This document shows positions 3,306 through 33,028 of a stretch of 34,873 bases of DNA, piece after piece. A program made the translations under genes and the position numbers. Under the pieces are notes generated by a model, which had not been told where the DNA came from, did not search any database, and worked only from the letters and a program-made list of their open reading frames with translations. Source of the stretch: an uncultured Nitrospinota bacterium (lineage in GTDB: Bacteria; Nitrospinota; Nitrospinia; UBA9942); NCBI GenBank assembly GCA_964391545.1, contig CAYMMR010000002.1, forward strand, positions 1-34,873, read 5' to 3'. Each line of letters begins with the position of its first letter. The first letter of the stretch is position 1.

Positions 3306-3312
3306 TTGTTTT

Positions 3313-8435: not shown

Positions 8436-8457
8436 ATATTACCTCCTTTTTATTTTA

Positions 8458-8522
8458 GTGCAAGTGAAAGTGTAAGCGCAAGTGAATTGTCTTTCTTTGC
8501 GCTTACATTCCCGCTTACACTT
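8458..8522. repeat. periodic-arm hairpin, 6-nt units: GTGCAA GTGAAA GTGTAA GCGCAA GTGAA - spacer - TTGCGC TTACAT TCCCGC TTACAC
   Basis: Between the flgE start and the flgD stop. The right arm overlaps the flgD stop codon. Confidence 0.85.
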
Positions 8523-9217: not shown

Positions 9218-9270
9218 GTTGAGTTGTTAAGTTGTTGAGTTGTTTAACTACTTAACTACTAAACTACTTA
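9218..9270. repeat. periodic-arm hairpin, 8-nt units: (GTTGAGTT/GTTAAGTT)x3.4 directly abutting (AACTACTT/AACTACTA)x3
   Basis: Intergenic between the fliK stop (9283) and the flgD start (9192). Confidence 0.85.
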
Positions 9271-9282
9271 AAAGCTGAATTG

Positions 9283-16353: not shown

Positions 16354-16359
16354 ACATTT

Positions 16360-16435
16360 AAAAGGTAAAGAGGCGAAAAGGTAAATAGGTTAATAGGCAA
16401 GCCTTTTTACCTTTTAACCTCTTAGCCTTTTAGCC
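16360..16435. repeat. periodic-arm hairpin, 8-nt units: (AAAAGGTA/AAGAGGCG/AATAGGTT/AATAGGCA)x5 abutting (CCTTTTTA/CCTTTTAA/CCTCTTAG/CCTTTTAG)x4
   Basis: Between the fliI stop and the fliJ start. The right arm overlaps the fliI stop codon (16430). Confidence 0.9.
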
Positions 16436-17752
16436 TGTAAATAGGGATTTTAATGATTCGATACTCTCGTTAAAATCCGCTCTCTCCTCTATCCCCTGGA
16501 TAAGGTATTTATTTATCCTGTCTACCATATTTACGGCATAATCGATTTTAGGATTGCTGCCCTTTACATAAGCTCCGATATTTATAAGGTCTTCCGCTTC
16601 TTTATATGTGGCAATAATCTCCTTAATCTTATGCGCAAGATTCATCTGCTCTTTTGATACTATATCTATCATCACCCTGCTTACGCTGTTCATTATGTCT
16701 ATTGCAGGATAATGGTTATGGGCAGCAAGACTCCTCGATAAAATAATATGCCCGTCGAGTATCGCCCTCGTGGAATCCGCTATAGGCTCGCTTAAATCAT
16801 CCCCTTCTACAAGAACCGCATAGAGACCCGTAATGCTTCCTCTATCCGATGCAGTCCCTGCCCGCTCTAAAAGCTTTGGAAGAGTTGCAAAAACAGAAGG
16901 CGTATATCCCTTTGTCGTAGGCGGCTCTCCTATGGCAAGTCCAACCTCTCTTTGCGCCATGGCAAAGCGTGTTACAGAATCCATCATCAAAATCACATCC
17001 ATCCCCTTTTCTCTGAAATATTCCGCAACGGCAGTGGCAATAAAGGCTCCGCGCATCCTTATAAGCGGCGGCTGGTCGGATGTAGCCGCAACTATCACCG
17101 ACCTCTTCAACCCCTCTTCCCCAAGATTCTTCTCTATAAAATCCTTTACCTCTCTTCCCCTCTCTCCGATAAGGGCGATGACATTCACATCCGCATTTGT
17201 ATTCCTCGCTATCATACCCATGGTAACGCTCTTTCCGACTCCTGTTCCCGCAAGTATGCCCAGCCTTTGTCCTTTGCCGCAGGTAAGAATGCCGTTGATT
17301 GCCCTTATGCCGAGGTCGAGAGGCTCGCTTATCCTTTTCCTCTTGAGAGGATTAATAGGAGCGGCATATAAGGGCTGCTCGATTCCTGTTCGAATCCGAC
17401 CCTTTTCATCGATAGGATTTCCAAGCCCGTCTATTACTCTTCCCAGCAATTCATCGGATACCTTTATGCTCGCCCTTTCTCTCCTTGCAACAATCAGATT
17501 TTCCGGTCCTATCCCTCTTGTATCTCCGAGAGGCATAAGAAGAATACTTTTGTCCCTGAACCCCACCACCTCTGCGCCTATAGGCTGGAGTTTCCCCTTT
17601 GGATATATATCGCAGAGCCCCCCGATAGATGAATCCGGACCGTTTCCCTCAACTACCAGTCCAACCACCCGTATTACCTTCCCGTTAATTTTTATGGGAT
17701 TAGTCTCTTTCAAGGCATGATGATACTTTTTAAAATCGATGGATGGAAACAT
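16430..17752 (-). CDS. fliI: flagellum-specific ATPase FliI
   Basis: Walker A GILAGTGVGKSV, Walker B DVILMMDSVTRFA, about 440 aa, fliH-fliI-fliJ synteny. Confidence 0.95.
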   Translation of the reverse strand: MFPSIDFKKYHHALKETNPIKINGKVIRVVGLVVEGNGPDSSIGGLCDIYPKGKLQPIGAEVVGFRDKSILLMPLGDTRGIGPENLIVARRERASIKVSDELLGRVIDGLGNPIDEKGRIRTGIEQPLYAAPINPLKRKRISEPLDLGIRAINGILTCGKGQRLGILAGTGVGKSVTMGMIARNTNADVNVIALIGERGREVKDFIEKNLGEEGLKRSVIVAATSDQPPLIRMRGAFIATAVAEYFREKGMDVILMMDSVTRFAMAQREVGLAIGEPPTTKGYTPSVFATLPKLLERAGTASDRGSITGLYAVLVEGDDLSEPIADSTRAILDGHIILSRSLAAHNHYPAIDIMNSVSRVMIDIVSKEQMNLAHKIKEIIATYKEAEDLINIGAYVKGSNPKIDYAVNMVDRINKYLIQGIEERADFNESIESLKSLFTG

Positions 17753-17757
17753 AAAAA

Positions 17758-17816
17758 GTTAAGAGTGAAGAGTGAAGAATTAAGAGTTAAGAGTTTTTCA
17801 TTCTTAACTCTTCACT
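17758..17816. repeat. periodic-arm hairpin, 7-nt units: GTTAAGA GTGAAGA GTGAAGA ATTAAGA GTTAAGA - TTTTTCA - TCTTAAC TCTTCAC
   Basis: Between the fliI start (17752) and fliH. The right arm encodes the last codons and the stop of fliH. Confidence 0.9.
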
Positions 17817-18544
17817 GCTTTCAGTGAGTGTTTTATCTCTTCTATCTGATGACCTATCCTTGCATCTATATTGCCGAAATTAGTCTCGACCGTGCACCCC
17901 CCTCTTTCTATCGAAGGGTCGCCGTCTACGGTTACATTTTTAAGTCCGTTAAACGAGCTAAGAATATCGGTTTTTATCTTTCTTGCCTCTTCCAAATCTT
18001 CGGGGTTTACCTTTATGGCAATTTCTTCTTTTCCGGTTATGCCGGCAACCGCCGCCTTTATAGTATTCAAAACCATCTCCTTATCCGAAGCAATTTCCCG
18101 GTGTATAACCTTTTCTGAGACTGCAAGAATAAGCTCTAACATCTCCGATTCCATTGTCTTATATATATTCTCTTTTAATCCGCTCACCTCGGTTAATATC
18201 TTTTTAACGGTTTCGACAACCGGAGAAACCGTTTTTCTCCCCTCTTCGATAGCTATCCTTTTTCCCTCTTCAAATCCCTTTTCATAAGCCTCTTTTTCGA
18301 TCCTCTCTGCCTTAAGTTTTGCCTCTTTTAAATATTTTTCGCCCTCTTTTTTTGCCTCTGCCTCTTTATCTTCCCTTTGAGCCGCAAAGCCGAACCCCCC
18401 CCTGCTGAAATCGCTCTTTTTCTTCTGCTGCTCCATTTTTTCGAATGAGGGTTCCTCTTTTTTCTCCTTGCGGACATATTTCATCTTTTCGATATCCGCA
18501 AATTGAAAAGGCTTAATATCATCTTTCCTCAATTTTAATACCAT
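17804..18544 (-). CDS. fliH: flagellar assembly protein FliH
   Basis: E/K-rich coiled coil plus C-terminal SIERGGCTVETNFGNIDARIGHQIEEI. Confidence 0.85.
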   Translation of the reverse strand: MVLKLRKDDIKPFQFADIEKMKYVRKEKKEEPSFEKMEQQKKKSDFSRGGFGFAAQREDKEAEAKKEGEKYLKEAKLKAERIEKEAYEKGFEEGKRIAIEEGRKTVSPVVETVKKILTEVSGLKENIYKTMESEMLELILAVSEKVIHREIASDKEMVLNTIKAAVAGITGKEEIAIKVNPEDLEEARKIKTDILSSFNGLKNVTVDGDPSIERGGCTVETNFGNIDARIGHQIEEIKHSLKAVKS

Positions 18545-18552
18545 AAGCTATT

Positions 18553-18620
18553 AATTCCTAATTTCCAATTTCCAATAAAAAAAATAAAATTCCTCAATTG
18601 GTAATTGGTAATTGAAAATT
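18553..18620. repeat. periodic-arm hairpin, 7-nt units: AATTCCT AATTTCC AATTTCC - 18-nt A-rich spacer - CAATTGG TAATTGG TAATTGA
   Basis: Fills the fliG stop (18623) to fliH start (18544) gap. Confidence 0.9.
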
Positions 18621-18622
18621 TT

Positions 18623-19633
18623 CTATACAAGTTCCTCCCCTGCCCCTCCTATAACTATCTTGCCCTCTTCTTCTAATTTTTTGGCAACCTTTAAGATATT
18701 CTGCTGCGCCTTTTCCACTTCGCTGAGCCTTTGTGGCCCCATAGCTTCAAGATCTTCCTTCATCATCGTTGCAGCCCTCTCCGACATATTGGCGAATATC
18801 TTCGCCTTAAGAGACTCGCTGGCTGTTTTCAAAGCTATAAGCAGGTCCTGACTGCTCACATCTTTCAATATTGTCTGCATCCCCCTGTCGTCAACCTTTA
18901 TAAGGTCTTCGAATACAAACATCAGCTTCCTTATTTCCTCTGCCAGATCGGGATTGCTGCCCTCTATCTCCGAGATAATTCTGGCTTCTGTAGTATGGTC
19001 TAACTGGTTCAGTATTTCAGCCACAGACTTAACCCCTCCTATCTTGCTCCCCTCTACAGCGCCCGCGCTTCTAAACTCCGCTGCCAGCGCCTCGTCCAGC
19101 TCTTTTATCACGCCGGGCGGTATACGCTCCAGAACCGCCATCCTGAATGTTACTTCCGACTGAAATTTTTCCGGCAATTCCTTTAAGACTGCGCCTGCGT
19201 GAGTCGCTTCAAGATGTGCAAGAATAATGGCACAGGTCTGGGGATGCTCGTTTCTCATAAAATTTGCTATGGTCTTGGCATCGAGGATACGAATGGCATC
19301 GAGGCCGCCGCCGCTTTCCTCTTCGCCTGTAAATGCCATCCTTTCCATCAACTCCTGCACCCTCCACGGCTCGAGCGCCTTCTCGAGAACCTTCTTTACA
19401 TAGTCCCTGCCTCCGACTACCAGTCCGCCCTCGCCCGAAGATATCTCTTTATAAAACTCCTCAGATACATTATCTATGGCATCGGAGCTGACGCTCGCAG
19501 CCCTGGTCATATAATTCCCTATCAACTGGATGTCCTTATCGTCAAGATTCTTTAGAACCTGTGACGCCAGCTCGTCGCCCAGAGATATTAAAAGCACTGC
19601 CGCCTTTTCAGGACCAGTAAGTTTTTCAGCCAT
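18623..19633 (-). CDS. fliG: flagellar motor switch protein FliG
   Basis: KAAVLLISLGDELASQVLKNL, EIRKLMFVFEDL, MSERAATMMKEDLE. Confidence 0.95.
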   Translation of the reverse strand: MAEKLTGPEKAAVLLISLGDELASQVLKNLDDKDIQLIGNYMTRAASVSSDAIDNVSEEFYKEISSGEGGLVVGGRDYVKKVLEKALEPWRVQELMERMAFTGEEESGGGLDAIRILDAKTIANFMRNEHPQTCAIILAHLEATHAGAVLKELPEKFQSEVTFRMAVLERIPPGVIKELDEALAAEFRSAGAVEGSKIGGVKSVAEILNQLDHTTEARIISEIEGSNPDLAEEIRKLMFVFEDLIKVDDRGMQTILKDVSSQDLLIALKTASESLKAKIFANMSERAATMMKEDLEAMGPQRLSEVEKAQQNILKVAKKLEEEGKIVIGGAGEELV

Positions 19634-21235
19634 TTATTTTCTCTCCCTCAACCATTTTCTCAAGAGTTCCGCAGCCCTGTCAGGATGCTCGGTCGTGAAC
19701 TCATGAACCCTATTTCTGAACTCTTCCTTTGTAACCTTTGGAGGCGTAGGCATCTCGGCCATTGCAGCCTCCAATTCAGCCACTGTCTTAGGTATTTCGG
19801 CCGGAGCCATCTCAGCGCCGATTCTGGTCAGCCACTGCAGCAGCGGTCTTATTACAAATATGAAAGACAGGGCTGCCACAACTCCTATCAACGAATATTT
19901 TATCACAGAGAGCCAGAACTGTCTACGAGCCTCAGCCTGCATCTCTCTCTTCTCCGCCATTATGTCTATTGCTTCAAAGGGGATATTCGTTACCTCGACT
20001 CTGTCTCCACGCTCCTGATTGAACCCTATGGCTGTCTTGACAATATCCTCATACTTTTTCATGTCTTCCTGGTTTCTCTGTATATACTTCCTTCCCTCTT
20101 CGCCCTTTTCCCCCTTCGTCTCCTCATAAGAGCCGTCAACCATAACAGCCACGGATAATCTTTTTAATTTGCCGACCGGCTCGATTACCTTTCTCACTAC
20201 TTTATTTATCTCATAATTTATTGTCTCGCTTGTCTTTTGAGCCCTTGGCGGAGTTCCGGCAGTCTGCATCATGGGTATGGCGCCTGGTATATTGGATTGA
20301 ACCCCCGGTATGCCGCTCGGCAGCCCTGCACCCTGAGAACTCTCCTCTGTCCTCTGTTCGCTCCTCGCCACCTGGCTGTCGGGGTCATAGTTTTCCTCCA
20401 TCCTCTCCACCTGTGAAAAATCCATATCCGTCGTTACCCTGACAATAGCCTTATTTCTTCCGAGAACATCTTCGAGCATCGTCTGCACACGGGACTCTAA
20501 TATCTTTTCAATGTTCTGCTGGTATTCCATCTGCGATGTAGTCATTTTGGCCGCCGGAGAAGCATCTCTTCCGCCGGATAAAATATTTCCGTGCATATCC
20601 ACTACGGTTATATCGGCGGCATCGAGCCCTTCGATAGAACTCGCAACCAGATGGACAATGCCCTGAACCTGATTCTCCTTAAGCCTCTTGCCTGCCCTCA
20701 ATTTCAAAATTACGGAGGCAGTGGTTTTTTTCTGGTCTTCTTTAAATAAAACCTTTTCCGGAATAACTATATGAACCCTCGACTGCTCGACCTCCGCAAA
20801 CTGGTTTATAGTCCTCGCAAGCTCTCCCTGGAGGGCCCTTTGATAATTCAGCTTTTGAACGAACTCCGTCATGCCAAAAGAGGTCTTATCGAAGATTTCA
20901 AATCCTACGCCGCTGCCCTGCGGCAATCCTTCGCCTGCCAATTGAAGCCTAAGCTCATAAACATCCTTAGACGGAACCATTATCGAGTCGCCGCCTGCCG
21001 ATATTTTATAAGGGGTTCTCTTTTCCTTAAGTTTTGTAACGATAGCGGATGCATCTTCGGAGGAAAGATTCGAATATAGGAGCTGAAATTCTTCGTTCCT
21101 TGCCCAAAATACCATTACAATAAAAATAGTCATTATAACTCCGCCGGCAGCAATTATAGCGACCCTTCTTCCGGGCGGAATCTTTTTAAATGTATCCTGA
21201 AGCTGCTCTAAAAACCTCTTCGAAAATTCAGCCAT
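19634..21235 (-). CDS. fliF: flagellar M-ring protein FliF
   Basis: LYSNLSSEDASAIVTKLKEKRTPYKISAGGDSIMVP and the YscJ/FliF fold. Start trimmed to MAEFSKRF (nt 21235, GGGGGTG SD), because the upstream 21 codons (MGHGSSFYLSLAPCPSV) are encoded by the heptamer hairpin. Confidence 0.9.
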   Translation of the reverse strand: MAEFSKRFLEQLQDTFKKIPPGRRVAIIAAGGVIMTIFIVMVFWARNEEFQLLYSNLSSEDASAIVTKLKEKRTPYKISAGGDSIMVPSKDVYELRLQLAGEGLPQGSGVGFEIFDKTSFGMTEFVQKLNYQRALQGELARTINQFAEVEQSRVHIVIPEKVLFKEDQKKTTASVILKLRAGKRLKENQVQGIVHLVASSIEGLDAADITVVDMHGNILSGGRDASPAAKMTTSQMEYQQNIEKILESRVQTMLEDVLGRNKAIVRVTTDMDFSQVERMEENYDPDSQVARSEQRTEESSQGAGLPSGIPGVQSNIPGAIPMMQTAGTPPRAQKTSETINYEINKVVRKVIEPVGKLKRLSVAVMVDGSYEETKGEKGEEGRKYIQRNQEDMKKYEDIVKTAIGFNQERGDRVEVTNIPFEAIDIMAEKREMQAEARRQFWLSVIKYSLIGVVAALSFIFVIRPLLQWLTRIGAEMAPAEIPKTVAELEAAMAEMPTPPKVTKEEFRNRVHEFTTEHPDRAAELLRKWLRERK

Positions 21236-21253
21236 AACACCCCCACTTACAGA

Positions 21254-21317
21254 GGGACAAGGGGCAAGGGACAAGTAAAAACTTGACCCATGACCCATGA
21301 CCCATGACCCATGACCC
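21254..21317. repeat. GGGGCAA/CATGACC-subfamily hairpin: GGGACAAGGGGCAAGGGACAAG - TAAAAA - CTTGACC(CATGACC)x4C
   Basis: Fills the fliE stop (21324) to fliF start (21235) gap. Confidence 0.92.
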
Positions 21318-21323
21318 TATTTT

Positions 21324-21632
21324 TTACACCTGCATCCTCATCACTTCCTGATATGCCTCTATCATCTTGTTTTTAACCTGCATCATCATACGAAATGATA
21401 CGCTTGCCTTTTCCATAGCTATCATTACATCGTGAATATTCTCAGCCCTTCCAAGCGCCAAATCCTTTGCAGCCTTATCGGCTTCGTTCTGAAGCCTGTT
21501 CACCTCTGTTATTGATTCTTTAAGGACTTCGCCAAATGCCTTTTCCGGTTTTTCGGTATTAAGCCCTCCTTTTCCATTAAGAGAAGGAATTGAAATACCG
21601 CTTGTATTATTAACTCTTAACTCATAACTCAT
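21324..21632 (-). CDS. fliE: flagellar hook-basal body protein FliE
   Basis: FGEVLKESITEVNRLQNEADKAAKDLALGRAENIHDVMIAMEKASVSFRMMMQVKNKMIEAYQEVMRMQV. Confidence 0.9.
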   Translation of the reverse strand: MSYELRVNNTSGISIPSLNGKGGLNTEKPEKAFGEVLKESITEVNRLQNEADKAAKDLALGRAENIHDVMIAMEKASVSFRMMMQVKNKMIEAYQEVMRMQV

Positions 21633-21648
21633 AAACTAACTTCTTGAA

Positions 21649-21794
21649 CTGTAACAACTTTTTTCTGAACGACTTTTCCCGGTGGATTATAGAAACTTTT
21701 CCTTACACCGCATTTTTCTTTTGAACCATAGTTTAATAATTTTAAAAAAGAATAAAAGAAAAATTAACGGAAGTGAAGAAAAAGGTTGTTGCAG
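21649..21794 (+). repeat. long-hairpin element copy B (146 nt, carries a ~35-nt extra segment in the left arm)
   Basis: CTGTAACAAC..CTGAACGAC..[CCCGGTGGATTATAGAAACTTTTCCTTACACCGCA]..TAACGGAAGTGAAGAAAAAGGTTGTTGCAG. Fills the flgC stop (21795) to fliE start (21632) gap. Confidence 0.9.
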
Positions 21795-22232
21795 TCACCT
21801 CCCTCCAATATCGAGCGCCCTCTGTGCCATAGACTTGGAATTGCTTATGGCAGTTACATTCGCCTCATAAGCCCTCGTTGCGGATAGCATATCCACCATC
21901 TCTTCCATAAGATTCACATTAGGCATTGCAACATAACCATCCGAATTCGCATCAGGATGACTTGGGTCGAATATCATTTTAGGCTCCTTATTATCTTCGA
22001 CTATATCCGTAACCTTAACCTCTCTTATATTATTTGCCATCCGGGATTTCAACACCTCATCAAACCCGCCTGCCGGGGTTGCCGTAAAAACCGGGCTCTT
22101 TTTCTTATATGGTCCGCCTTCCGGAGTTCTCGTAGTATTTACATTCGCAAGATTGCTCGATATAACATCCATTCTTGTCCTCTGGGCAGTAAGCCCTGAG
22201 GCGCTGACTTTTAATGATGTAAACAAATCCAT
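21795..22232 (-). CDS. flgC: flagellar basal-body rod protein FlgC
   Basis: MDLFTSLKVSASGLTAQRTRMDVISSNLANVNTTRT. Start trimmed to nt 22232 (GGGGGG SD), because the upstream 15 codons are repeat-encoded. Confidence 0.9.
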   Translation of the reverse strand: MDLFTSLKVSASGLTAQRTRMDVISSNLANVNTTRTPEGGPYKKKSPVFTATPAGGFDEVLKSRMANNIREVKVTDIVEDNKEPKMIFDPSHPDANSDGYVAMPNVNLMEEMVDMLSATRAYEANVTAISNSKSMAQRALDIGGR

Positions 22233-22249
22233 AAACCCCCCAATAAAAA

Positions 22250-22317
22250 GGGTCAAGAAGCAAGGGGCAAGGGGCAATCAAAAACAAACTTGACCCTTGC
22301 TACATGACCCTTGACCC
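22250..22317. repeat. GGGGCAA/CATGACC-subfamily hairpin (degenerate copy)
   Basis: GGGTCAAGAAGCAAGGGGCAAGGGGCAA - TCAAAAACAAA - CTTGACCCTTGCTACATGACCCTTGACCC. Fills the flgB stop to flgC start gap. Confidence 0.88.
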
Positions 22318-22325
22318 TGTTAAAT

Positions 22326-22745
22326 TTATTTGCTTCCTCCCTGGTCAATTGCATATTTCAAACCTTCAAATTTCTTTAACACAAGCTGGGCAACGGCATT
22401 ATACATAATAGTATTCTCCGCCATCTTGGTAACCTCTTTATCTATATTCACATTATTTCCATCTATACCGGGCGGCGCATTGTCAATAATAACTTCGGGA
22501 CTCACCCTCTCGATTTCCCTTAAACCTGCAGGCAGATGCCTCTCGTGGGTCTTCATTAATCCCTTACCCGATTCGCTGTCTACCACAGCCCTCAACTGCT
22601 CCTCGAAAGAAATATCGCTCGATTTATAATTCGGCGTGTTAATATTGGCAATATTCGATGAGATAAGATTATGTCTCTCGGACCTGAAATCGAGAACCTT
22701 CTTATAAATATCTATACTCCCGCCAGAAAGTTTTAATATATCCAT
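22326..22745 (-). CDS. flgB: flagellar basal-body rod protein FlgB
   Basis: RHNLISSNIANINTPNYKS motif. First gene after a sigma54-type promoter. Confidence 0.9.
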   Translation of the reverse strand: MDILKLSGGSIDIYKKVLDFRSERHNLISSNIANINTPNYKSSDISFEEQLRAVVDSESGKGLMKTHERHLPAGLREIERVSPEVIIDNAPPGIDGNNVNIDKEVTKMAENTIMYNAVAQLVLKKFEGLKYAIDQGGSK

Positions 22746-22772
22746 AAAATCTCCTTTGCGATTATATGTATA

Positions 22773-22788
22773 TGCAAATCAGATGCCG
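22773..22788 (-). promoter_or_regulatory. sigma54 (-24/-12) promoter of the flgB operon
   Basis: The minus strand reads CGGCATCTGATTTGCA (GG-N10-GC). It is 27 nt upstream of the flgB ATG and is followed by the same AAAGGAGATTTTATGGA leader as fliK. Confidence 0.7.
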
Positions 22789-22933
22789 AATATTATTTAC
22801 AAATGAAATTCTAATAATTTCAAATAGTTATAATTATTGTATAGGCAAAAGTTTCCCCTATTTCAAAGTTAAGACATTAAAACCTCCTCTAAAGTCATTT
22901 ATTTGACATGAACATTTTCTTTAAGTAGACGAT

Positions 22934-23052
22934 ACTGAAAAATGACTTTTTTGAACGACTTTTTAGTTTTTCTTTTGTTCCATAATGTAATAATTTCAAT
23001 AAAATAAAGCAAAAGAAAAAATAACGGAAGTGAAAAAAGGTCATTTTTCAGT
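22934..23052 (+). repeat. long-hairpin element copy C (119 nt)
   Basis: ACTGAAAAATGAC TTTTTT GAACGAC ... TAACGGAAGTG AAAAAAG GTCATTTTTCAGT. In the divergent region upstream of flgB. Confidence 0.9.
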
Positions 23053-23086
23053 GCGAACTAAGTAAGAAAACTATTCTTACCAATCA

Positions 23087-23115
23087 TTGACACTTTATAA
23101 ATATTTCTGTAAGCT
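23087..23115 (+). promoter_or_regulatory. candidate sigma70 promoter for the AcdB-like gene
   Basis: TTGACA-N17-TAAGCT, 33 nt upstream of the ATG at 23149. SD is AAGGGGA. Confidence 0.35.
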
Positions 23116-23148
23116 TGATTAAGGTTAAAAGGGGATGGAAATTTTCCA

Positions 23149-23865
23149 ATGAATAAACAAAAAATAGAAAAAATCATAAAAGATGCACTAACTGCAGGAA
23201 GAAAATCCCTGCTTGAGCCGGAGGCAAAGACGCTCATCTCCACATTGGGCATATCAATACCTAAATCAATTCTTATTAAAAGAGAAAAAGATATAGTAGC
23301 GGCGGCAAAAAAACTCTCCCCTCCTTATGTTTTAAAAGTTATATCTTATGATATTCTTCACAAAAGTGAAGCAGGGGGAGTAATAACCGGAATAAGCGAT
23401 TTTAAAGGATTAAACCAAGCGCGGGTAAAAATAATTAAAAATATTAATAAATATATTCCTGGAGCTACAATAGATGGTTTTCTTCTCGAAGAGATGGCGC
23501 CAAATGGAGTAGAGGTTATTATTGGGGCATTAAGAGACCCTCAGTTTGGACCCACGGTTATGTTCGGGATAGGGGGCATTGCAGTAGAACTCTTGAAGGA
23601 TGTATCCTACAGGCTTGCACCAATTAACAAAAAAGATGCCTTCGATATGATAAAGGAAGTAAAGTCATACCCCTTGCTGACAGGGTTCAGAGGCTCTAAT
23701 CCTGTGGATTTGGAAAACATAGCGTCTGTTATTATAAAGCTGTCCGAGATATTAATTAAAATAGAGGATATAAAAGAAATCGAAATAAACCCCCTGATTG
23801 TTTATGAAAAGGGTGTGAAGGCAGTGGATGCAAGGGTGGTGTTAAATCGAAAGGATAAATCTTAA
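23149..23865 (+). CDS. ATP-grasp domain protein, ADP-forming acetyl-CoA synthetase beta-subunit (AcdB)-like
   Basis: LEPEAKTLISTLGISIP..PPYVLKVISYDILHKSEAGGVITGI..IDGFLLEEM..VEVIIGALRDPQFGPTVMFGIGG pattern. Confidence 0.65.
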   Translation: MNKQKIEKIIKDALTAGRKSLLEPEAKTLISTLGISIPKSILIKREKDIVAAAKKLSPPYVLKVISYDILHKSEAGGVITGISDFKGLNQARVKIIKNINKYIPGATIDGFLLEEMAPNGVEVIIGALRDPQFGPTVMFGIGGIAVELLKDVSYRLAPINKKDAFDMIKEVKSYPLLTGFRGSNPVDLENIASVIIKLSEILIKIEDIKEIEINPLIVYEKGVKAVDARVVLNRKDKS

Positions 23866-23955
23866 ACTTAATACCCCTGCTCTTCCAGTTTTTTCCTCTC
23901 CATTAACCTCCACTTGTAAATCCCGCACCCCTCTTTTTTATTTTTTATTTTTTCA

Positions 23956-23983
23956 TTGAAAAACTAACAACATATAGTATAAT
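23956..23983 (+). promoter_or_regulatory. sigma70-type promoter giving a leaderless DUF1640 mRNA
   Basis: TTGAAA-N16-TATAAT. The -10 element ends 6 nt before the ATG at 23990 and there is no SD. Confidence 0.55.
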
Positions 23984-23989
23984 GCAGTC

Positions 23990-24235
23990 ATGGAAACAGT
24001 ATTTGATACACTAAAGATATACGAACGACTTAAAAAAGCTGACCTGCCGGATATAGCTGCTAAAGAGATAGCAGAAGTCTTCAGAGAAACTATAGGAGAA
24101 CGTCTCGTAACAAAAGAGTATCTTGACCTTCGATTAAAAGAACTGGAAGTTGAAATTAGACTTCTTAAATGGATGGTAGGTGTCATATTAGCCGGTGTCA
24201 TATCCCTTGTCTTGAAAATTTTTTTCATACCGTAA
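23990..24235 (+). CDS. DUF1640 (coiled-coil, C-terminal TM) protein, probably leaderless
   Basis: FDTLKIYERLKKADLPDIAAKEIAEVF...LLKWMVGVILAGVISLVLKIFF. TATAAT ends 6 nt before the ATG. Confidence 0.6.
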   Translation: METVFDTLKIYERLKKADLPDIAAKEIAEVFRETIGERLVTKEYLDLRLKELEVEIRLLKWMVGVILAGVISLVLKIFFIP

Positions 24236-24352
24236 TCCTTTCATAAGGACATCCAGATACAGTGCAGAAAGGCTTTTTGACAAATTGGGCGGTCAGAACA
24301 AAACATCTGTCAAAGTTTTAAATAACTCTCAATCTTCTTCAAATCATGCTTC

Positions 24353-25312
24353 CTACCTCTCCTTGAATGCGCCCATATTTCTGAATTTCTCCCTCCTCTG
24401 TCCGACTAAATCCTTTGGCGGAATATAGGCAAGCTCCTGTAAATGCCTCCTTAAAACCCTTCTCAATATTCCTGCGGTTGCAGAGGGGTTTCTGTGCGCG
24501 CCTCCGAGAGGCTCTTTTATTATCTCGTCAATTACACCTAATTTAAACAAGTCGTCGGAAGTCAGGCAGAGAGACTCTGCCGCCTCCTCGACCTTTTTAC
24601 AGTCATCCCATAGTATTGCGGCGCAGCCTTCGGGAGATATTACCGAATAAACGGAATGTTCGAGCATAAGAACTCTATTTCCTACACCCAATGCCAGAGC
24701 GCCGCCGCTCCCTCCCTCCCCTATTACTACAGCTATTATAGGAACCGATATATTAGCCATTTCGAGCAAATTTCTTGCAATAGCTTCTGCCTGCCCCCTC
24801 TCCTCCGCACCGATACCGGGATATGCGCCGGGGGTATCGAGTAAAGTTATAATAGGTTTCCCGAATTTCTCCGCAAACTTCATAAGCCTGAGCGCCTTTC
24901 TATACCCTTCGGGCTGAGGCATGCCAAAGTTTCTATACATTTTCTCTTTCAGGTCCCTCCCCTTCTGATGCCCTATTATAAATACGCTCCATTCCTCCAG
25001 CCTGGCGATTCCTCCAACAATGGAATGGCAGTCGCCAAAATGCCTATCGCCGTGCAGCTCTACGAAGTCCTCCGTCATCATACTTATGTAATCCATTGTG
25101 TATGGACGCGCAGGGTGTCTTGCAAGCTGTGTTCTCTGCCATCTGGTAAGCCTTGAAAGGAGGGAATCTTTAAGCCTGTTTGCCTTTTTATGCAGCCGTC
25201 TTATCTCGCCGGAAAAGTCAACGCCGTTATTTTTAGAAAGAGAGCGCAATTCGGCTATCTTTTTTTCAAGCTCTATTATAGGTTCTTCAAAATCAAGATA
25301 TTGTCCTGCCAT
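24353..25312 (-). CDS. accA: acetyl-CoA carboxylase carboxyltransferase alpha subunit AccA
   Basis: [23 protein letters not shown] start, [33 protein letters not shown]. Start trimmed to nt 25312. The upstream in-frame 23 codons are repeat-encoded (see finding). Confidence 0.9.
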
Positions 25313-25318
25313 ATTTAA

Positions 25319-25400
25319 GGGGCAAGGGACAAGGGGCAAGGGACAAGGGACAAGAAAAGTAACTGTTTTTACTTGACCCATGACCCATGACCCATGACCC
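25319..25400. repeat. GGGGCAA/CATGACC-subfamily hairpin: (GGGGCAA/GGGACAA)x5 - 17-nt spacer - CTTGACC(CATGACC)x3C
   Basis: Fills the dnaE stop (25402) to accA start (25312) gap. Confidence 0.92.
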
Positions 25401-25401
25401 T

Positions 25402-28400
25402 TTATTCAAAGTATACCACATCATCTCCAAAGATACCTTCAATATCTTTAATCATCAAATCATCCGGGGAGACCTGAAAAGTTTTATCAAGCCCTATGTT
25501 TATCTGGCTCTTATCCGGGAAAAAAATATGGAGGAAGATGTTATTTTTCCCTTTTCTCAACGATAAAACCTCTTTCAAGCGAATCAGCGTATCCTTTTCC
25601 AGTCCTACCGCCTGAATGTTTATGTGAACCTTTGAAGAGAGCCTTTCCCTTATGTTTAAGAGAGAGAAAATCTCCCTTGCAATTATCTTTGTCGAATCGT
25701 CTTCTGCGCTTATGCTCCCCTTAACCCAGATAGGGTCTTCCCCTTCGATGAGGCTTAACGCCGTCTTATACAAGTCGGGAAATATTATCATCTCCGATGA
25801 GCCATGAAGGTCTTCGAGTGTCGCAAATGCCATTGTATCGCCCTTTTTCGTAACCTGAGTCCTGTATTTGCTTATAACCCCTGCAATGCTTATCTCCCTC
25901 CCGTTCTTTATATCCTGAAGGGTCTGAGTATTTACATTCGTAAAATGTCTTATATCTTTTTCGAATCTCGAGAGGGGATGTCCGGATATATAAAAACCAA
26001 GGGATTCTTTTTCATAGGATAAAAGTTCCTTTTCTGTCCATTCTAAATCAGGGACTGGAGACTGGAGACTGGAGACTTGTTTTTTACCGGCGCCAAGCCC
26101 CAAGCCTCCAGCCCCTATCCCAAAATTATCGAACATATTATACTGCCCTCTCTCCCTGTCTTTCTGAACTGTCTGTGCGTTGTTTATAGTCGCATCGAGG
26201 CCGTTTATCATGGATGCCCTATAGGTTTTTGGAGATAGGTTTTTAGAATCGGCTGTCCCGTCGAATGCACCGCACTTTATGAGGCTTTCTATTACCTTTC
26301 TGTTTACCGCCCTCAAATCAACACTCTCGCAAAAATCCATCAGGGAGTTAAAACTACCCTTTGCCTCTCTTGCCTTCAATATCGCCTCTACTGCGCTTCC
26401 TCCTACATTTTTTACAGCCGCAAGGCCAAACCTAATTCCTCCCCTTGCCCCTTCCTCATAAGCGGTTGTAAAATCGCTAAAACTCTCATTAATATCCGGC
26501 GGAAGCACCAGTATACCCATATCCTTGCACTCGGCTATATACTGTATCAGCTTATCCGTATTCCCCATTTCGCTCGAAAGCAGCGCAGACATAAACTCCA
26601 GCGGATAGTGCGACTTGAGATATGCTGTCTGATAAGCAACAAGGGCATAAGCAGCGCTGTGCGATTTATTAAACCCGTAACCTGCAAAATGCTCCATCAG
26701 GTCGAATATCTTATCCGCCTTATCCTCCGGTATCCCTTTGGCTGCGGCGCCCTTTACAAACTTCTCCCTCTGCTGAGCCATCTCCTCGGGTTTCTTCTTA
26801 CCCATCGCCCTTCTGAGCGTATCCGCAGCCCCCATGCTGAAGCCGCCGAGCGTTCCGGCTATTCTCATAACCTGCTCCTGATAAAGTATTACGCCATAAG
26901 TCTCCTTCAAAATATCATCCAATTGTGGAACTATATTTTTTATAGAAACGGTTCCGTGTTTTCTTTTAATAAAATCATCCACCATTCCGCTGCCGAGCGG
27001 TCCCGGGCGGTATAATGCAACCAGGGCTATAACATCCTCAAAAACCTCCGGTTTTAACTTCCTTAATATATCCCTCAATCCCGAGCTTTCAAGCTGAAAT
27101 ACGCCAAATGTTCTTGCATCGCTCAAGAGCTTATATGTATCTTTATCGTCCAAAGGTATATTCTCTATATTGAAATCCTTCTCATATTTACTCCTGATAA
27201 GCTCCTCTGTTTTTCTTATAACAGTAAGAGTTCTCAAGCCGAGGAAATCCATCTTTAATAGCCCGAGTTTTTCAATATCCTCCATCGGATACTGGGTCGT
27301 TATCTCGCCCCTATTAGCCTTATAAAGAGGCATGAATTCCGTAAGAGGCGCAGGAGATATGACAACGCCCGCTGCATGGGTTGAGGCGTGTCTCGGAAGC
27401 CCCTCGAGCCTTCTCGCTATATCGAGGAGGCTCTTAACCCTCTCGTCCTTTTTTTCGAACTCCTTAAATCTCGGCTCTTCTTTTATCGCATCGTCCAGCG
27501 TGATATTCAGCCTGTTCGGAACCAATTTGGCAATCCTGTCCGCATCGCTGTATGGCATTGCCATCGCCCTGCCTACATCTCTTATAACCGCCTTTGCATT
27601 CATGCTTCCAAAAGTTATTATCTGTGCGACATTTCCGTATTTTTCCGTTACATAGGCTATTACCTCGTCTCTCCTTTCCATGCAGAAATCTATATCTATA
27701 TCCGGCATGCTTATCCTCTCCGGGTTTAAAAACCTCTCGAAGAGCAGTCCATATTTTATCGGGTCGAGGTCGGTAATCCGTAAAGAGTAAGCAACCAGAC
27801 TTCCCGCTGCAGACCCCCTGCCGGGTCCCACAGGGATCCCTTTTCTTCGCGCATAATCTATAAAGTCCCACACGATGAGAAAATATCCCGAGTATCCCAT
27901 AGTCTTTATCATCTTGATCTCATTTTCCAATCTATCGAAATATACCTTTCTTATATCTTCTTCTGCCCCCTGACCCCTGACCCCCGACCCTTCTTTTTTA
28001 AGCCTTGCCTCCAAGCCGTGTATTGCCATATCACGAAGGTAGCCGTCCAGAGTAGTATCGGAAGGGACATCGTAGCGCGGCAGGTGAATCTGGTCGAATC
28101 TCATATCCAGATTGCATCTCTCCGCTATTTCCATAGTGTTTGAGATAGCCTCCGGCGCCTCTTTAAAGAGGTGCTTCATCTCCTGAGGAGATTTAAAATA
28201 AAACTGATTCGTAGTAAACCGCATCCTCTTAGGGTCGTCGGTCGTCTTGCCCGTCTGAATGCAGAGGAGAATCTCATGTGCATCGGCATCCTTTTCATCC
28301 ATATAATGGCAATCGTTTGTAGCTGCAAGCGGGATGGAGAGCTTCTTTGCCATCTCCAGCATATCCCTGTTTATACCCTTCTGGTCGGGTATATTCTGGT

Positions 28401-28944
28401 CCTGAATCTCGAGATAAAACCTTCGCTCCCCCATTATATCCTTATAAAATGAGGCTGCCTTATATGCGTCGTCCTTCTGCCCTTTATGAAGAAGCCTCTG
28501 TATCTCGCCCTTCATGCAGCTGCTCAAGACTATAAGACCTTCGGTATGCTTCGACAAAATTTCCTTGTCTATACGGGGTCTGTAATAAAAACCCTCTAAA
28601 TAGCCTGCGCTTACCAGCAATACAAGATTTTTATATCCTGCGGCATTCTTTGCAAGCAGAATAAGGTGATAGGAGCTGTCCGATATTCCTTCCTGCGACG
28701 ATTTTTCAAATCTGCTTGTCGGCGCAACATAGACCTCGCAGCCGATAATAGGCTTAATGCCGTATTTCTTCGCGGTCCTGTAAAAATCAACCGCGCCGAA
28801 CATATTGCCGTGGTCGGTTATGGCAAGGGACGGCATTTTGTATTCGCACGCCTTTTTAAAGAGAGGTTCGAGACGAATAGCGCCGTCTAACAAGCTGTAT
28901 TGGGTATGTAGATGCAGATGGACAAAATCGGAATGATGCATCAT
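25402..28944 (-). CDS. dnaE: DNA polymerase III alpha subunit DnaE, with two repeat-derived in-frame segments
   Basis: PHP motif [32 protein letters not shown], and OB-fold C-terminus. 1180 aa. Confidence 0.97.
26051..26115. repeat. periodic-arm hairpin, 7-nt units: GGGACT(GGAGACT)x2 GGAGAC - 16-nt spacer - CCAAGCC CCAAGCC TCCAGCC CC, inside dnaE
   Basis: Read directly. Encodes [22 protein letters not shown]. The arms pair with G:U on the mRNA (minus) strand. Confidence 0.85.
27966..27990. repeat. single-arm heptamer array CCCCTGA CCCCTGA CCCCCGA CCC inside dnaE
   Basis: Read directly. Encodes GSGVRGQGA. Confidence 0.8.
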
Positions 28945-28946
28945 GA

Positions 28947-29015
28947 GATTTGGGATTTGGGATTTGGGATTTGGGATTTTTCAAAATCCAAAATCAAAAA
29001 TCCAAAATCAAAAAT
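28947..29015. repeat. periodic-arm hairpin, 7-nt units: (GATTTGG)x4 GATTTTT - (CAAAATC/AAAAATC)x4
   Basis: Fills the FYDLN-acid stop (29016) to dnaE start (28944) gap. Confidence 0.92.
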
Positions 29016-29294
29016 TTAAAACTCCTCTTCCTCAATCTCTAACGGAACTTCTCCTTCATCCAGTATAAGATCTTCTTCTCCCTCTGCTCCGGGGATAGTC
29101 TCCTCTAATAATTCCTCCTCCGGCGGCATTACAACATCTCTATGGACTGCCCCGTGAGACGGCTTTTCCTGGCGGGGAGCTTCTGACTGATCCGCTCCGC
29201 ATTTAGGACATACTGCCTTAGATTTATTTAAATCATAAAATTTGCATCCGCATTTAAAACACTGATACCTGTTGCCATATTTGCTTTTTGTCAT
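29016..29294 (-). CDS. FYDLN-acid (TIGR02300-like) zinc-ribbon protein
   Basis: MTKSKYGNRYQCFKCGCKFYDLNKSKAVCPKCG plus an acidic tail EEEDLILDEGEVPLEIEEEEF. Start trimmed to nt 29294, because the upstream 23 codons are repeat-encoded. Confidence 0.75.
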   Translation of the reverse strand: MTKSKYGNRYQCFKCGCKFYDLNKSKAVCPKCGADQSEAPRQEKPSHGAVHRDVVMPPEEELLEETIPGAEGEEDLILDEGEVPLEIEEEEF

Positions 29295-29313
29295 AAATCC
29301 CTCCAAAAATTCA

Positions 29314-29375
29314 GGGGCAAGGGGCAAGGGGCAAGGGACAAGTATATTTTTATCTTGACCCATGACCCATGACCC
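29314..29375. repeat. GGGGCAA/CATGACC-subfamily hairpin: (GGGGCAA)x3 GGGACAAG - TATATTTTTAT - CTTGACC CATGACC CATGACCC
   Basis: Fills the guaA stop (29386) to FYDLN-acid start (29294) gap. Confidence 0.92.
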
Positions 29376-29385
29376 TTCTGTTTTC

Positions 29386-30957: not shown

Positions 30958-31038
30958 AACAATATGATTTTGACTATTACAATAAAATATGCTATTTTTT
31001 TATTATAGCAAGATTTTTTTATTTCAGGAGGTGATAAA

Positions 31039-31281: not shown

Positions 31282-31304
31282 TTTTACCTAACTCTCCGAC
31301 TAAC

Positions 31305-31417
31305 ACGGCAAGACCCTTTTCCTGAATGACTTTTTATTTTTTCTTTTGTTCCATAATGTAATCTAAAAATAGTGCAAAAGAAAAAATAACGGAAGTGAAG
31401 GAAAAGGGTCTTGCCGT
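31305..31417 (+). repeat. long-hairpin element copy D (113 nt)
   Basis: ACGGCAAGACCC TTTTCCT GAATGAC ... TAACGGAAGTG AAGGAAAA GGGTCTTGCCGT. Between the convergent FmdB gene and guaB; possible bidirectional terminator. Confidence 0.9.
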
Positions 31418-31426
31418 CGTTATCAC

Positions 31427-32893
<1,467 letters not shown>

Positions 32894-32909
32894 TTACCTC
32901 CTTGATAAT

Positions 32910-33024
32910 ACTGCAAAACCTTCTTCTTCACTTCCGTTAATTTTCATTTTGTTCTATTTTTTTAATTATTACATTATGGTTCAAAATGAAAATTAAAAAG
33001 TCGTTCAGAAGAAGGTTTTGCAGT
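32910..33024 (-). repeat. long-hairpin element copy E (115 nt, inverted orientation)
   Basis: The minus strand reads ACTGCAAAACC TTCTTCT GAACGAC ... TAACGGAAGTG AAGAAGAA GGTTTTGCAGT. Fills the mutL stop (33029) to guaB start (32890) gap. Confidence 0.9.
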
Positions 33025-33028
33025 ATAT

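Follow-up and report, generated by a model that had tools for sequence, protein, structure and literature searches.

Between the flagellar genes fliE and fliF of an uncultured Nitrospinota bacterium (GenBank assembly GCA_964391545.1, contig CAYMMR010000002.1), most of the space from the stop codon of one gene to the start codon of the next is taken up by two convergent arrays of a 7-nt unit, which are predicted to fold into a hairpin and lie at positions 21254-21317 of the 34,873-nt stretch that we analyzed (hereafter the window). The locus raises the question of whether such an element is a signal that serves the operon or an insertion that the operon withstands. An initial annotation of the sequence had drawn attention to this and related copies, here termed GGGRCAA-type hairpin repeats, and had suggested that they act in translational coupling, re-initiation or mRNA processing between cistrons. 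Comparisons with close relatives and with members of the family in other phyla lead us to propose, with roughly even confidence, that the elements are selfish or neutral, rapidly turning-over hairpin insertions, which have been filtered by selection to gene-sparing sites and orientations. This picture of repeated gain and loss with selective retention is drawn from the presence of empty orthologous sites, the replacement of one family by another, the nesting of elements, their spread within a genome, and the occurrence of copies in frame within genes.

Probable turnover of heptamer hairpins at operon junctions and within genes

The window contains five copies with the general build (GGGRCAA)n-loop-(WTGACCC)n on the plus strand (Table 1). 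The left arm comprises two to five tandem GGGGCAA or GGGACAA units, whose counterparts on the minus strand are the GGGTCAT/GGGTCAA units of the other arm, while the right arm comprises three to five tandem TTGACCC or ATGACCC units, and the two are separated by a short, A/T-rich loop of 0-19 nt (the loop of copy 3 reads as 26 nt if two degenerate right-arm units are counted in). Either strand of the element thereby displays a G-rich 5' arm and a C-rich 3' arm. All five copies contain a tandem array of a 7-nt unit with a tract of three to four Gs, and in 5/5 two such arrays lie near each other, one per strand, in convergent orientation. The arm motifs occur well beyond chance expectation: GGGRCAAGGGRCAA has 16 matches in the window against 0.03 expected from shuffled sequences, and TGACCCWTGACCC has 15 against 0.05, all of them on the plus strand. 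The arrays are all that the copies have in common, with the loops differing from copy to copy.

According to a gene map built from NCBIfam scans, the genes flanking the copies are all on the minus strand. Re-reading of the sequence recovered the five co-oriented copies where the initial annotation had placed them, each with the GGGRCAA arm first on the plus strand, and the spacing that it had given (1-10 nt after the upstream stop and 5-20 nt before the downstream ATG) was measured as 1-10 and 6-19 nt at four junctions. Its description of the copies as fillers of stop-to-start gaps applies to these four, which occupy 68-92% of the respective gaps, but not to copy 1, which is not intergenic and lies in frame within pgeF. 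Shine-Dalgarno (SD) sequences are located outside the stem ahead of fliF (GGGGG) and the FYDLN_acid gene (GGAGG), and none precedes the ATG of accA.

Relatives of the source organism were found by homolog searches with PgeF and FliE, and are metagenome-assembled genomes (MAGs) labelled 'Nitrospinae bacterium', including Rifle RIFCSPLOWO2 bins and GCA_016194325; contigs L104-L107, L109 and L111-L113 were compared with the window. DNA identity is 91.5% between L111 and L112, and about 75% between the window and either of the two. At the junction between the genes for a Zn-ribbon and a radical SAM (rSAM) protein, the window displays an 80-nt AGGTTG/CTTAAC hairpin between TAG and ATG, where L105 and L106 have an overlapping TAATG, and L107 has an unrelated CGCAGA-type hairpin at the same point. 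The fliI-fliJ junction holds a 76-nt hairpin in the window, as against a gap of 4 nt in L111 and L112 and of 5 nt in L113, and that of fliG-fliH holds a 78-nt hairpin, as against 9 nt in L111 and L112 and 1 nt in L113. These empty orthologous sites show that the gene pairs at the filled junctions originally overlapped or nearly did so.

Other junctions are filled in several relatives, albeit by different families. The fliE-fliF junction holds (GGGTCAT)n in the window, (CAGTAAG)n/(CTGCCTA)n in L111, (TGAGTTNA)n/(TTAACTCA)n in L112, and 15 nt in L113; in the first three the flanks are kept, with ...GTGTAA ahead of the element and GGGGGTGTT-ATG behind it. Likewise, the flgB-flgC junction holds the GGGTCAA family in the window, the GAAGATTGA family in L111, a nested CGCAGA-type composite within the flgC gene call in L112, and 2 nt in L113. 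As the families at these junctions differ even between the 91.5%-identical L111 and L112, the hairpins are replaced far faster than coding sequence diverges. A given family also recurs at neighboring junctions of one genome, as do GGGRCAA, with two copies in the window's flagellar cluster, and GAAGATTGA, with two in L111, and the CAGTAAG family is found at fliE-fliF in L111 but at flgC-fliE in L112.

Two further assemblies, L001 and L116, carry a sequence identical to copy 5; as they are 99.99-100% identical to the window across it, repeat-number polymorphism between assemblies was discarded at this copy. The metagenome contig L115 (Ga0114945_10213584) is 99.9% identical to window positions 25366-26252, a stretch with the right arm of copy 4 and the 3' end of dnaE, and diverges completely inside the copy 4 loop, with another left arm and another downstream flank. 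Either recombination has taken place at the hairpin, or the contig is a chimera assembled across the repeat.

Intragenic elements make up about a quarter of the census of the family described below. Pfam scans of ten of the intragenic census open reading frames (ORFs) identified each of them as a real gene (recJ, a murD-like gene, uvrD/pcrA, hisA/F, cobQ, cbiD, the gene for an ABC-F protein, two polyketide synthase genes, and RACo); in eight of them there are domains on both sides of the element or a single domain alignment spanning it, and the element is placed mostly in linkers or loops of the encoded proteins. Copy 1 encodes a peptide segment in a PgeF loop between the QVHGDNIHII and IEADAIITN motifs. 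The pgeF gene of L104 carries the same element with a 5' arm exactly three units shorter (21 nt, 7 codons), that of L105 has a decayed version of it, and those of L106, L107 and L109 have other repeat families in the loop, including the GATTTnC/AAAATCn type seen at window positions 28947-29015. This loop is a hot spot. In comparison with solved structures, the sites of copy 1 and of the element within dnaE correspond to variable loops or linkers in their families, the latter site (26051-26115) falling in a linker that varies among solved structures of Pol III alpha; as both sites are variable, only close orthologs are informative on clean insertion. Two close PgeF homologs (P0002 and P0004) have an extra 17-residue insertion (PPLTKGAGHPSSGWVGGFG) in another loop (alignment A1, columns ~72-90), which may be another in-frame repeat insertion.

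The GGGRCAA family is one among at least 12 tandem-repeat hairpin families identified in the window using Tandem Repeats Finder and a scan of our own. Nearly all intercistronic gaps of the window hold a hairpin, whose arms consist of about four tandem units of 6-8 nt and their imperfect complement, and the unit sequence differs at most sites; folding of the gaps yields hairpins on both strands. On both strands, most of these other families have a 5' arm rich in G or in purines, but GATTTGG, AGGTAA and CAATTAC have the same architecture and about four units without being G-rich. Nine gaps with other units, representing at least nine further families, are listed in Table 1. Additionally, hairpins are nested within the loops of other hairpins, and higher-order periods of 14 nt are present in the repeats.

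Table 1. Hairpin repeats, related features and flanking genes in the window (energies and z-scores are those of the predicted sense hairpin)
Feature	Position	Strand or gene context	Description
Copy 1	1237-1302	-	Left arm 1237-1264, loop G at 1265, right arm 1266-1299 (+TTG to 1302); plus strand (GGGGCAA)4 G TAACCC (ATGACCC)2 TTGACCC ATGACCC TTG; -32.8 kcal/mol, z -2.6
Copy 2 (fliE-fliF)	21254-21317	-	Left arm 21254-21274, loop 21275-21282, right arm 21283-21317; plus strand GGGACAA GGGGCAA GGGACAA, loop GTAAAAAC, TTGACCC (ATGACCC)4; 6 nt past fliE stop (21324-21326), 18 nt before true fliF ATG (21233-21235), 64/88 nt of gap (73%); -27.1 kcal/mol, z -3.1
Copy 3 (flgB-flgC)	22250-22317	-	Left arm 22250-22277, loop 22278-22289, right arm 22290-22317; plus strand GGGTCAA GAAGCAA GGGGCAA GGGGCAA, loop TCAAAAACAAAC, TTGACCC TTGCTAC ATGACCC TTGACCC; 8 nt past flgB stop, 17 nt before flgC ATG (22230-22232), 68/93 nt of gap (73%); -32.2 kcal/mol, z -4.7
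Copy 4 (dnaE-accA)	25319-25400	-	Left arm 25319-25353, loop 25354-25372 (19 nt), right arm 25373-25400; plus strand five GGGRCAA units, loop, TTGACCC (ATGACCC)3; 1 nt past dnaE stop (25402-25404), 6 nt before accA ATG (25310-25312), 82/89 nt of gap (92%); -36.6 kcal/mol, z -6.0
Copy 5 (guaA-FYDLN)	29314-29375	-	Left arm 29314-29341, loop 29342-29354, right arm 29355-29375; plus strand (GGGGCAA)3 GGGACAA, loop GTATATTTTTATC, TTGACCC (ATGACCC)2; 10 nt past guaA stop, 19 nt before FYDLN ATG (29292-29294), 62/91 nt of gap (68%); -27.0 kcal/mol, z -3.7
Half-copy	27963-27990	-	About four CTGACCC-type units without partner arm; in frame within dnaE, encodes GSGVRGQGA
Partial copy	12440-12501	+	Two short GGGRCAA arrays without TGACCC arm; within plus-strand FliD-like gene (12062-14467), encode ...ARGKPAPASSKQGGQGARD...
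AGGTTG/CTTAAC hairpin	3243-3306		Gap hairpin
GAAGACA/TCTGTCA hairpin	6064-6198		Gap hairpin
AGGTAA/CTTTAC hairpin	7125-7185		Gap hairpin
Further hairpin	8457-8484		Gap hairpin of same architecture
GTTGAGTT/TTAACTAC hairpin	9218-9271		Gap hairpin
TAAATAGG/CCTTTTAA hairpin	16359-16436		Gap hairpin
Further hairpin	17757-17795		Gap hairpin of same architecture
TTCCAAT/AATTGGT hairpin	18555-18614		Gap hairpin
GATTTGG/CAAAATC hairpin	28947-29015		Gap hairpin
dnaE internal hairpin	26051-26115		In frame; GACTGGA/CCAAGCC, other family
mutL linker repeats	33633-33834		In frame, inter-domain linker; AGTGTTG and AGTTCGG/ACTCCCA; two-armed array at 33765-33834
Long palindrome	581-725		~115-nt class
Long palindrome	21633-21794		~115-nt class
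Long palindrome	~31300-31424		~115-nt class
Long palindrome	32891-33028		~115-nt class
pgeF	726-1475	-	NCBIfam
fliF	19634-21235	-	NCBIfam
fliE	21324-21632	-	NCBIfam
flgC	21795-22232	-	NCBIfam
flgB	22326-22745	-	NCBIfam
accA	24353-25312	-	NCBIfam
dnaE	25402-28944	-	NCBIfam
FYDLN_acid	29016-29294	-	NCBIfam
guaA	29386-30957	-	NCBIfam

Several other repeats accompany these hairpins. The CGCAGA-type repeat (CGCAGATTT/AATCTGCG) is a nested inner hairpin in the window (6040-6197), and forms the outer arms of junction hairpins in L107 (8164-8264) and L112 (4566-4706), which suggests that hairpin loops may themselves be insertion targets. A second class of repeat is a long imperfect palindrome of ~115 nt (CTGCAAAAACCTTTTTCTTCACTTCCGTTA...TAAAAAGTCGTTCAGGAAAAGGTTTTTGCAG) with a look reminiscent of transposable elements of the miniature inverted-repeat type (MITEs), present in four copies and in both orientations, the one at 21633-21794 containing a nested insert of ~32 nt. 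The palindrome between pgeF and the next gene is missing in four relatives, which have a 21-nt gap there, and a CAAC duplication may flank this copy. A single-arm array of the heptamer ACCACTG (plus strand of the window; ~4.6-4.9 units) is found in the window (2674-2705) and in L106 (8767-8800) at the same spot, ~525 nt into an rSAM gene of the TIGR03960 family, and thus represents a conserved tandem repeat within coding sequence. L106 also codes for a stand-alone reverse transcriptase (RVT_1, 334 aa; 172-1773). Its gene lies ~8 kb upstream of pgeF and is followed by a small ORF and a gene of the TumE family.

Distribution across phyla, predicted folding and reading frames

We scanned species-representative genomes for the pattern CAAGGGRCAAG-N(2-32)-TGACCCWTGACCC and obtained at least 102 stretches, against ~0.5 expected in random sequence as estimated from the information content of the pattern. 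The ensuing census comprises 111 elements among the matches listed, from ~100 public contigs and the window; detection was unit-agnostic, the search pattern demanded only 2+2 units, genes were heuristic ORF calls, and the taxonomic labels of MAGs were taken as given. Among the matches listed, carriers of GGGNCAA/TTGNCCC elements are MAGs labelled Nitrospirota/Thermodesulfovibrionia, many Geobacter and Desulfuromonadales, 'Nitrospinota' groundwater bins, Ca. Enterocola and Paludibacteraceae of the Bacteroidota, and Omnitrophota, with single matches in Brocadia, Ignavibacteria, Chthoniobacterales, Selenomonadaceae and Aquibacillus. The Aquibacillus locus (L059) is a minimal 2+2-unit version that resembles an ordinary terminator stem followed by a T-run. 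No copies of the GGGNCAA family were found in a collection of viral contigs. Recent horizontal transfer of whole elements was considered and rejected, given that loops are shared only at orthologous sites or where they are A-rich and of low complexity, and given the lack of viral copies.

The initial annotation had proposed that a genome-wide census of the positions and orientations of these elements would be telling, and the present approximation to it with 111 elements reveals a strongly non-random placement: 55 are between co-directional genes, as opposed to 7 between convergent and 5 between divergent genes, 27 are inside long ORFs, and of the remaining 17, 11 are located at contig ends and 6 are separated from a flanking ORF by over 300 nt. 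The distance from stop codon to element has a median of ~2-5 nt in three phyla and clusters between -1 and +10 nt in all three large groups, whereas the distance from element to start, where the ORF start is no extension artefact, is typically 9-34 nt in three phyla, i.e., of the size of an SD region. Unit numbers peak at four, in the left arm (56/111), the right arm (55/111) and both arms together (35/111), and the median loop length is 15 nt.

Orientation, which can be scored only where the two arms carry different unit variants, is likewise biased. The intergenic copies of the window are in the stop-free orientation (GGGUCAA...UUGYCCC on the mRNA) in four cases and in the orientation with TGA in every frame (GGGACAA...UUGACCC) in none; the corresponding counts are ~9 and 2 for the ATGACCC subfamily in metagenome contigs, and 15 and 6 for intergenic copies of Nitrospirota and Desulfobacterota (p = 0.08). 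In Bacteroidota the bias is the reverse, with 1 stop-free and 16 TGA-bearing cases (p = 0.0003), a set that comes mostly from one MAG, yet with both plus and minus gene contexts represented. Thus, orientation of the element is coupled to gene direction or replication direction, with a sign that differs between clades. In intragenic copies the stop-free orientation is trivially enforced.

These distributions bear on the reading frames of the element, to which the initial annotation had attached particular weight, holding that the arrays supply an ATG in every frame of the mRNA strand and a TGA in every frame of the antisense strand. ATGs in all three sense frames are found only in copies 2 and 4, with two frames in copies 1 and 5 and one in copy 3, and TGAs in all three antisense frames are found in copies 1, 2, 4 and 5 but not in copy 3, so that both statements are true of a subset of the copies. 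The property is an arithmetic by-product of the 7-nt period, since 7 = 1 mod 3. Nor is it conserved: the ATG-bearing GGGTCAT occurs in the clade of the window alone, Geobacter-type copies consist of GGGTCAA/GGGTCAG units lacking an ATG, and the orientation is reversed in Bacteroidota. Consequently, we do not see it as a purpose of the element. The apparent N-terminal ORF extensions that had been noted (MGHG.../MGQ...PCPLPL.../LPLAPCF...) are real open-frame artefacts, which arise because the sense strand is stop-free through the element. The window ORFs 19634-21298, 24353-25381, 29016-29363 and 5455-6201 read through elements, several with such spurious extensions, and in L112 the flgC call (4562-5134) has swallowed the element, giving 190 aa as against 142 aa in L111.

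All five window copies are predicted to form stable sense-strand hairpins (Table 1), and their antisense strands are predicted to fold about equally well. Arm pairing on the mRNA strand shows recurrent U·U and U·C mismatches that break the helix every 7 bp, in agreement with the ~5/7 complementarity and pyrimidine-pyrimidine mismatches pointed out previously. Over 21 hairpins there is no excess of G·U (31) over A·C (30), and hence no signature of pairing as sense-strand RNA. We withdrew the notion that a periodic central mismatch is a family-wide feature: the 36/182 complementary pairs observed against 78.5 expected are largely imposed by the search pattern, which required R in the one arm and A in the opposite one, and eight elements in the fetched loci that fall outside the pattern comprise three fully complementary, three mismatched and two mixed cases. 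The mismatch every 7 bp is hence a fact for the window copies, and is not established for the GGGNCAA family.

Half of the 12 junction hairpins in the window precede SD-less starts, which lie 2-12 nt from the stem base. Rfam 15 gave no match at or above the gathering score anywhere in the window, no terminator-like site was called at the four intergenic copies (scanned range 18000-31000), where the sense strand past the 3' arm continues into SD/ATG sequence and not a U-run, and no promoter-like signal coincided with the elements in the scan. On these scans we rejected a known RNA family, an intrinsic terminator or a promoter as an explanation. The energy model predicts that (GGGGCAA)4 forms a G-quadruplex (G4) about as stable as the hairpin, and that in the sense RNA of every window copy the hairpin is favored over the G4. 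We accordingly rejected the G4 as an organizing principle, as non-G-rich families also share the architecture.

Proposed insertion and tolerance weighed against alternative explanations

We envisage a non-coding hairpin repeat that would be copied into, or regenerated at, new sites again and again, with fast turnover, and of which purifying selection would leave only those copies that are harmless. One kind of tolerated site would be the interval that separates a stop codon from the following cistron's ribosome-binding region or ATG. Here, the transcribed element would form a stem with a predicted -27 to -37 kcal/mol and one mismatch per 7 bp, placing the stop and the start within ~8-25 nt of each other, and would thereby keep them close enough for coupled or SD-driven initiation, be it by termination-reinitiation or short-range scanning, to go on. 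The other kind would be permissive loops or linkers of proteins, entered in frame and in the stop-free orientation. The element would be transcribed and folded in vivo, and the folding probably preserves stop-start closeness and with it translational coupling, because six of the 12 junction hairpins of the window precede SD-less starts near the stem base and the equivalent gene pairs of the relatives overlap or nearly do so. Compatibility with coupling would then be a condition for tolerance rather than a function provided by the element. The tight fit into the gaps is likewise to be expected, because in a compact operon only the nucleotides between the stop and the SD/ATG can accept 60-90 nt. 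As candidates for the copying mechanism we consider hairpin-specific transposition in trans, local templated copying, and slippage after seeding.

Several observations weigh against this proposal. The NCBIfam gene scans detected no transposase in the window, and there are no conserved termini among the copies. Comparison of filled and empty sites at the Zn-ribbon-rSAM and flagellar junctions gave no consistent target-site duplication, only ambiguous TAAA/AAATA in A/T-rich flanks. The loops are unrelated between copies even within the window, unlike in classical MITEs or repetitive extragenic palindromes (REPs). That one family should cleanly supplant another in a given slot would be odd for transposition, and the sharp four-unit mode together with the orientation bias (~12 against 2 for the ATGACCC subfamily, besides the counts given above) hints at a constraint or a directional mechanism that a selfish or neutral origin leaves unexplained. 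Not all copies are ephemeral, as orthologous ones are little changed between the species of the pairs L003/L054 and L016/L055. Finally, the limits of the census, namely its extent to the matches listed, its heuristic ORFs and its labels taken as given, count against the proposal too.

Of the alternatives, that of an adaptive cis-acting RNA fares best, though we regard it as unlikely. It follows the initial annotation in holding that a post-stop hairpin in the polycistronic mRNA tunes expression, through protection against 3' exonucleases, processing, slowed termination or re-initiation. The hairpins of E. coli REPs stabilize upstream mRNA and, when within ~15 nt of the stop codon, reduce upstream protein output. 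In favor of such a role, the element closely abuts the stop codon in three phyla, with a strong preference for co-directional contexts, orientation is biased relative to transcription, the predicted stems are stable (z of -2.6 to -6), SD-less downstream starts adjoin the stem base, and junctions at which the sequence has been replaced between close relatives retain the architecture of ~4+4 units and an A/T-rich loop. Nevertheless, relatives run the same operon with empty junctions or with unrelated hairpins there, and the position is equally well explained by the scarcity of insertable nucleotides from the stop to the SD. About a quarter of the copies, including copy 1, sit in frame in real genes, where a signal for coupling or processing is implausible. 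Moreover, no Rfam family covers the element, and a dedicated function of the sense RNA is disfavored because G·U equals A·C, both strands fold alike, and the orientation differs between phyla, being reversed in Bacteroidota. Thus, what stands of the proposed coupling or processing role is the non-random position and orientation and the SD-less starts by the stem base in 6/12 cases, and what speaks against it are the genic copies, the empty or differently filled orthologous junctions and the absence of a G·U excess.

A second alternative, which we consider improbable, is that the hairpins originate in place from a short local inverted repeat, e.g., an old terminator stem, both arms of which have grown by replication slippage with nothing being copied between sites; GGGNCAA would then recur merely as an easily slipping stem. 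The unrelated loops and flanks of the copies, the difference by whole units (3 units, 21 nt) between pgeF orthologs, the 14-nt higher-order periods, the terminator-like 2+2-unit version of Aquibacillus L059, and the over-representation of heptamer simple sequence repeats in bacteria (PMC4692102) are all consistent with such an origin. It is at odds with the appearance of whole two-armed hairpins in 4-nt gaps, TAATG overlaps and coding loops where the relatives have no seed, with the recurrence of the same unit family at several unrelated sites of one genome and at different junctions in genomes 91.5% identical, and with a unit distribution that is sharply peaked at 4+4 instead of broad.

Action at the DNA level appears to us more doubtful still. 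The convergent G-rich arrays would act as a G4, i-motif, cruciform or site for a nucleoid or regulatory protein, and thereby affect transcription, replication or chromosome structure. Each strand does have a G-tract array in its 5' arm, (GGGGCAA)4 has the predicted G4 stability noted above, and the four-unit mode matches the four G-tracts needed by a G4, an argument that has been made for GGGAATC/GGGGAYT repeats along with in vitro evidence for G4 (PMC4692102). Further, the paired tandem repeats of G. metallireducens have been proposed to be sites for integration host factor (IHF) or HU (PMC2700814), and the pairing statistics are symmetric between the strands. Yet the GATTTGG, AGGTAA and CAATTAC families share the architecture and the ~4 units without being G-rich, so that G4 formation is no general principle, the predicted sense-RNA hairpin beats the G4 in every copy, and the empty orthologous sites argue against an essential role. 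To our knowledge, the elements have no protein partner.

Least of all do we favor the very improbable idea that repeat-adding or fold-back synthesis creates the hairpins anew at DNA ends or gaps, without their being copied as units, whereby a break between genes would be healed by the addition of a few template units to both 3' ends (telomere-like, or by slippage and snap-back), followed by head-to-head joining of the ends. Such writing would explain the G-rich 5' arm on both strands, the ~4 units (~28 nt) per arm, the unrelated A/T-rich loops, the several template families per genome, the clean rewriting of slots at 91.5% identity, and the occurrence of the same heptamer across phyla.

Relationship to known repeats and significance

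Elements of this kind have been described before, and GGGNCAA is a new sequence family among them. The nearest counterparts are the GGGAATC heptamers of Xanthomonas and the GGGGA(C/T)T heptamers of Nostoc, which show a four-unit preference, frequent convergent pairs and enrichment between aligned ORFs, lie up to 50 bp past stops (coding strand) and ahead of starts (non-coding strand), and form G4 in vitro (Rehm et al. 2015, PMC4692102). The likeness extends to a 7-nt unit with a G3-4 tract, the preference for four units, convergent arrays on opposite strands, enrichment between co-directional ORFs, the same stop/start geometry, and some copies that overlap stop codons or sit in ORFs. They differ in that the unit here is GGGNCAA, which departs from their GGGNATC consensus, and in their hosts; in the use of unlike variants by the two arms of the window copies (GGGRCAA on one strand, GGGTCAT on the other), which results in the mismatch every 7 bp; in the many non-G-rich families that share the architecture in the window genome; and in the fast replacement at orthologous junctions, as the Xanthomonas repeats are mostly conserved in place between two species.

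The genome of G. metallireducens contains paired tandem repeats of 7-9 nt and a GGACCGG x4 element between and within genes (Aklujkar et al. 2009, PMC2700814). These too have 3-5 tandem units on opposite strands with a variable spacer, in dozens of copies and several families per genome, and Geobacter relatives are among the main carriers of GGGNCAA in the census. The units are different, however, and the repeats were interpreted there, without a test, as IHF/HU sites ('global regulator binding sites') or regulatory RNAs, with no comparison of orthologous sites (PMC2700814).

Like the present elements, the REPs of gamma-proteobacteria and the composites built of them, i.e., bacterial interspersed mosaic elements (BIMEs) and REP doublets (REPINs), are short, non-coding and hairpin-forming, with many copies at operon junctions and gene 3' ends. 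REPs are transcribed within mRNAs, are thought to be mobilized in trans and tolerated only outside coding sequence, and can alter mRNA stability and translation. However, they are imperfect palindromes of 20-40 nt without tandem sub-repeats, whereas the arms here are tandem heptamers; they have a conserved 5' GTAG-type tetranucleotide and an associated Y1 transposase (REP-associated tyrosine transposase, RAYT), whereas GTAGCAA is only an occasional unit variant here, e.g., in copy 3; and they are essentially extragenic, in contrast to the often intragenic GGGNCAA family (copy 1 in pgeF; 27/111 in the census). MITEs are defined by terminal inverted repeats with target-site duplications and by termini and an interior that are conserved among copies; the elements here share only the arrays, their loops are unrelated, and no consistent duplication was seen.

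Palindromic repeats in frame in unrelated housekeeping genes, adding a peptide at permissive surface positions, are known as Rickettsia palindromic elements (RPEs; PMC10969869). The resemblance is one of behavior alone, that is, the in-frame insertion of a palindrome into unrelated protein genes such as pgeF and recJ, for RPEs measure ~100-150 bp, have no tandem build and are restricted to Rickettsia, whereas the GGGNCAA family is mostly intercistronic. Among cyanobacteria, short tandemly repeated repetitive (STRR) sequences are long-noted tandem heptamer repeats. The TAACTGA direct repeats of Beggiatoaceae, Cyanobacteria and Bacteroidetes have a patchy cross-phylum distribution suggestive of horizontal spread (MacGregor 2015, PMC4679880). 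Both resemble the present family in being tandem heptamers, mostly intergenic near start codons and patchy across phyla, but are mostly single direct arrays of other units that lie upstream of starts and do not abut stops. A full-text literature search for GGGGCAA and heptamer returned nothing relevant, and the GGGNCAA unit is absent from PMC4692102, PMC2700814, PMC4679880 and PMC10969869. What may be new for the class is how fast elements are replaced at fixed junctions of close relatives, along with the colonization of overlapping stop/start junctions.

At a practical level, gene callers extend or fuse ORFs through the elements, as in fliF, accA and FYDLN, since all frames of one strand are open. 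The annotation of repeat-rich MAGs in these clades is probably systematically inflated. More generally, tandem heptamers have been noted in bacterial genomes for decades without an agreed origin or function. The lineage of the window, with hairpins in almost every operon junction and relatives at 91.5% and ~75% identity, offers a natural before/after series on both the origin and the cost of such repeats. It shows that insertions of 60-90 nt can occupy stop/start junctions that originally overlapped, as well as housekeeping proteins, without destroying them.

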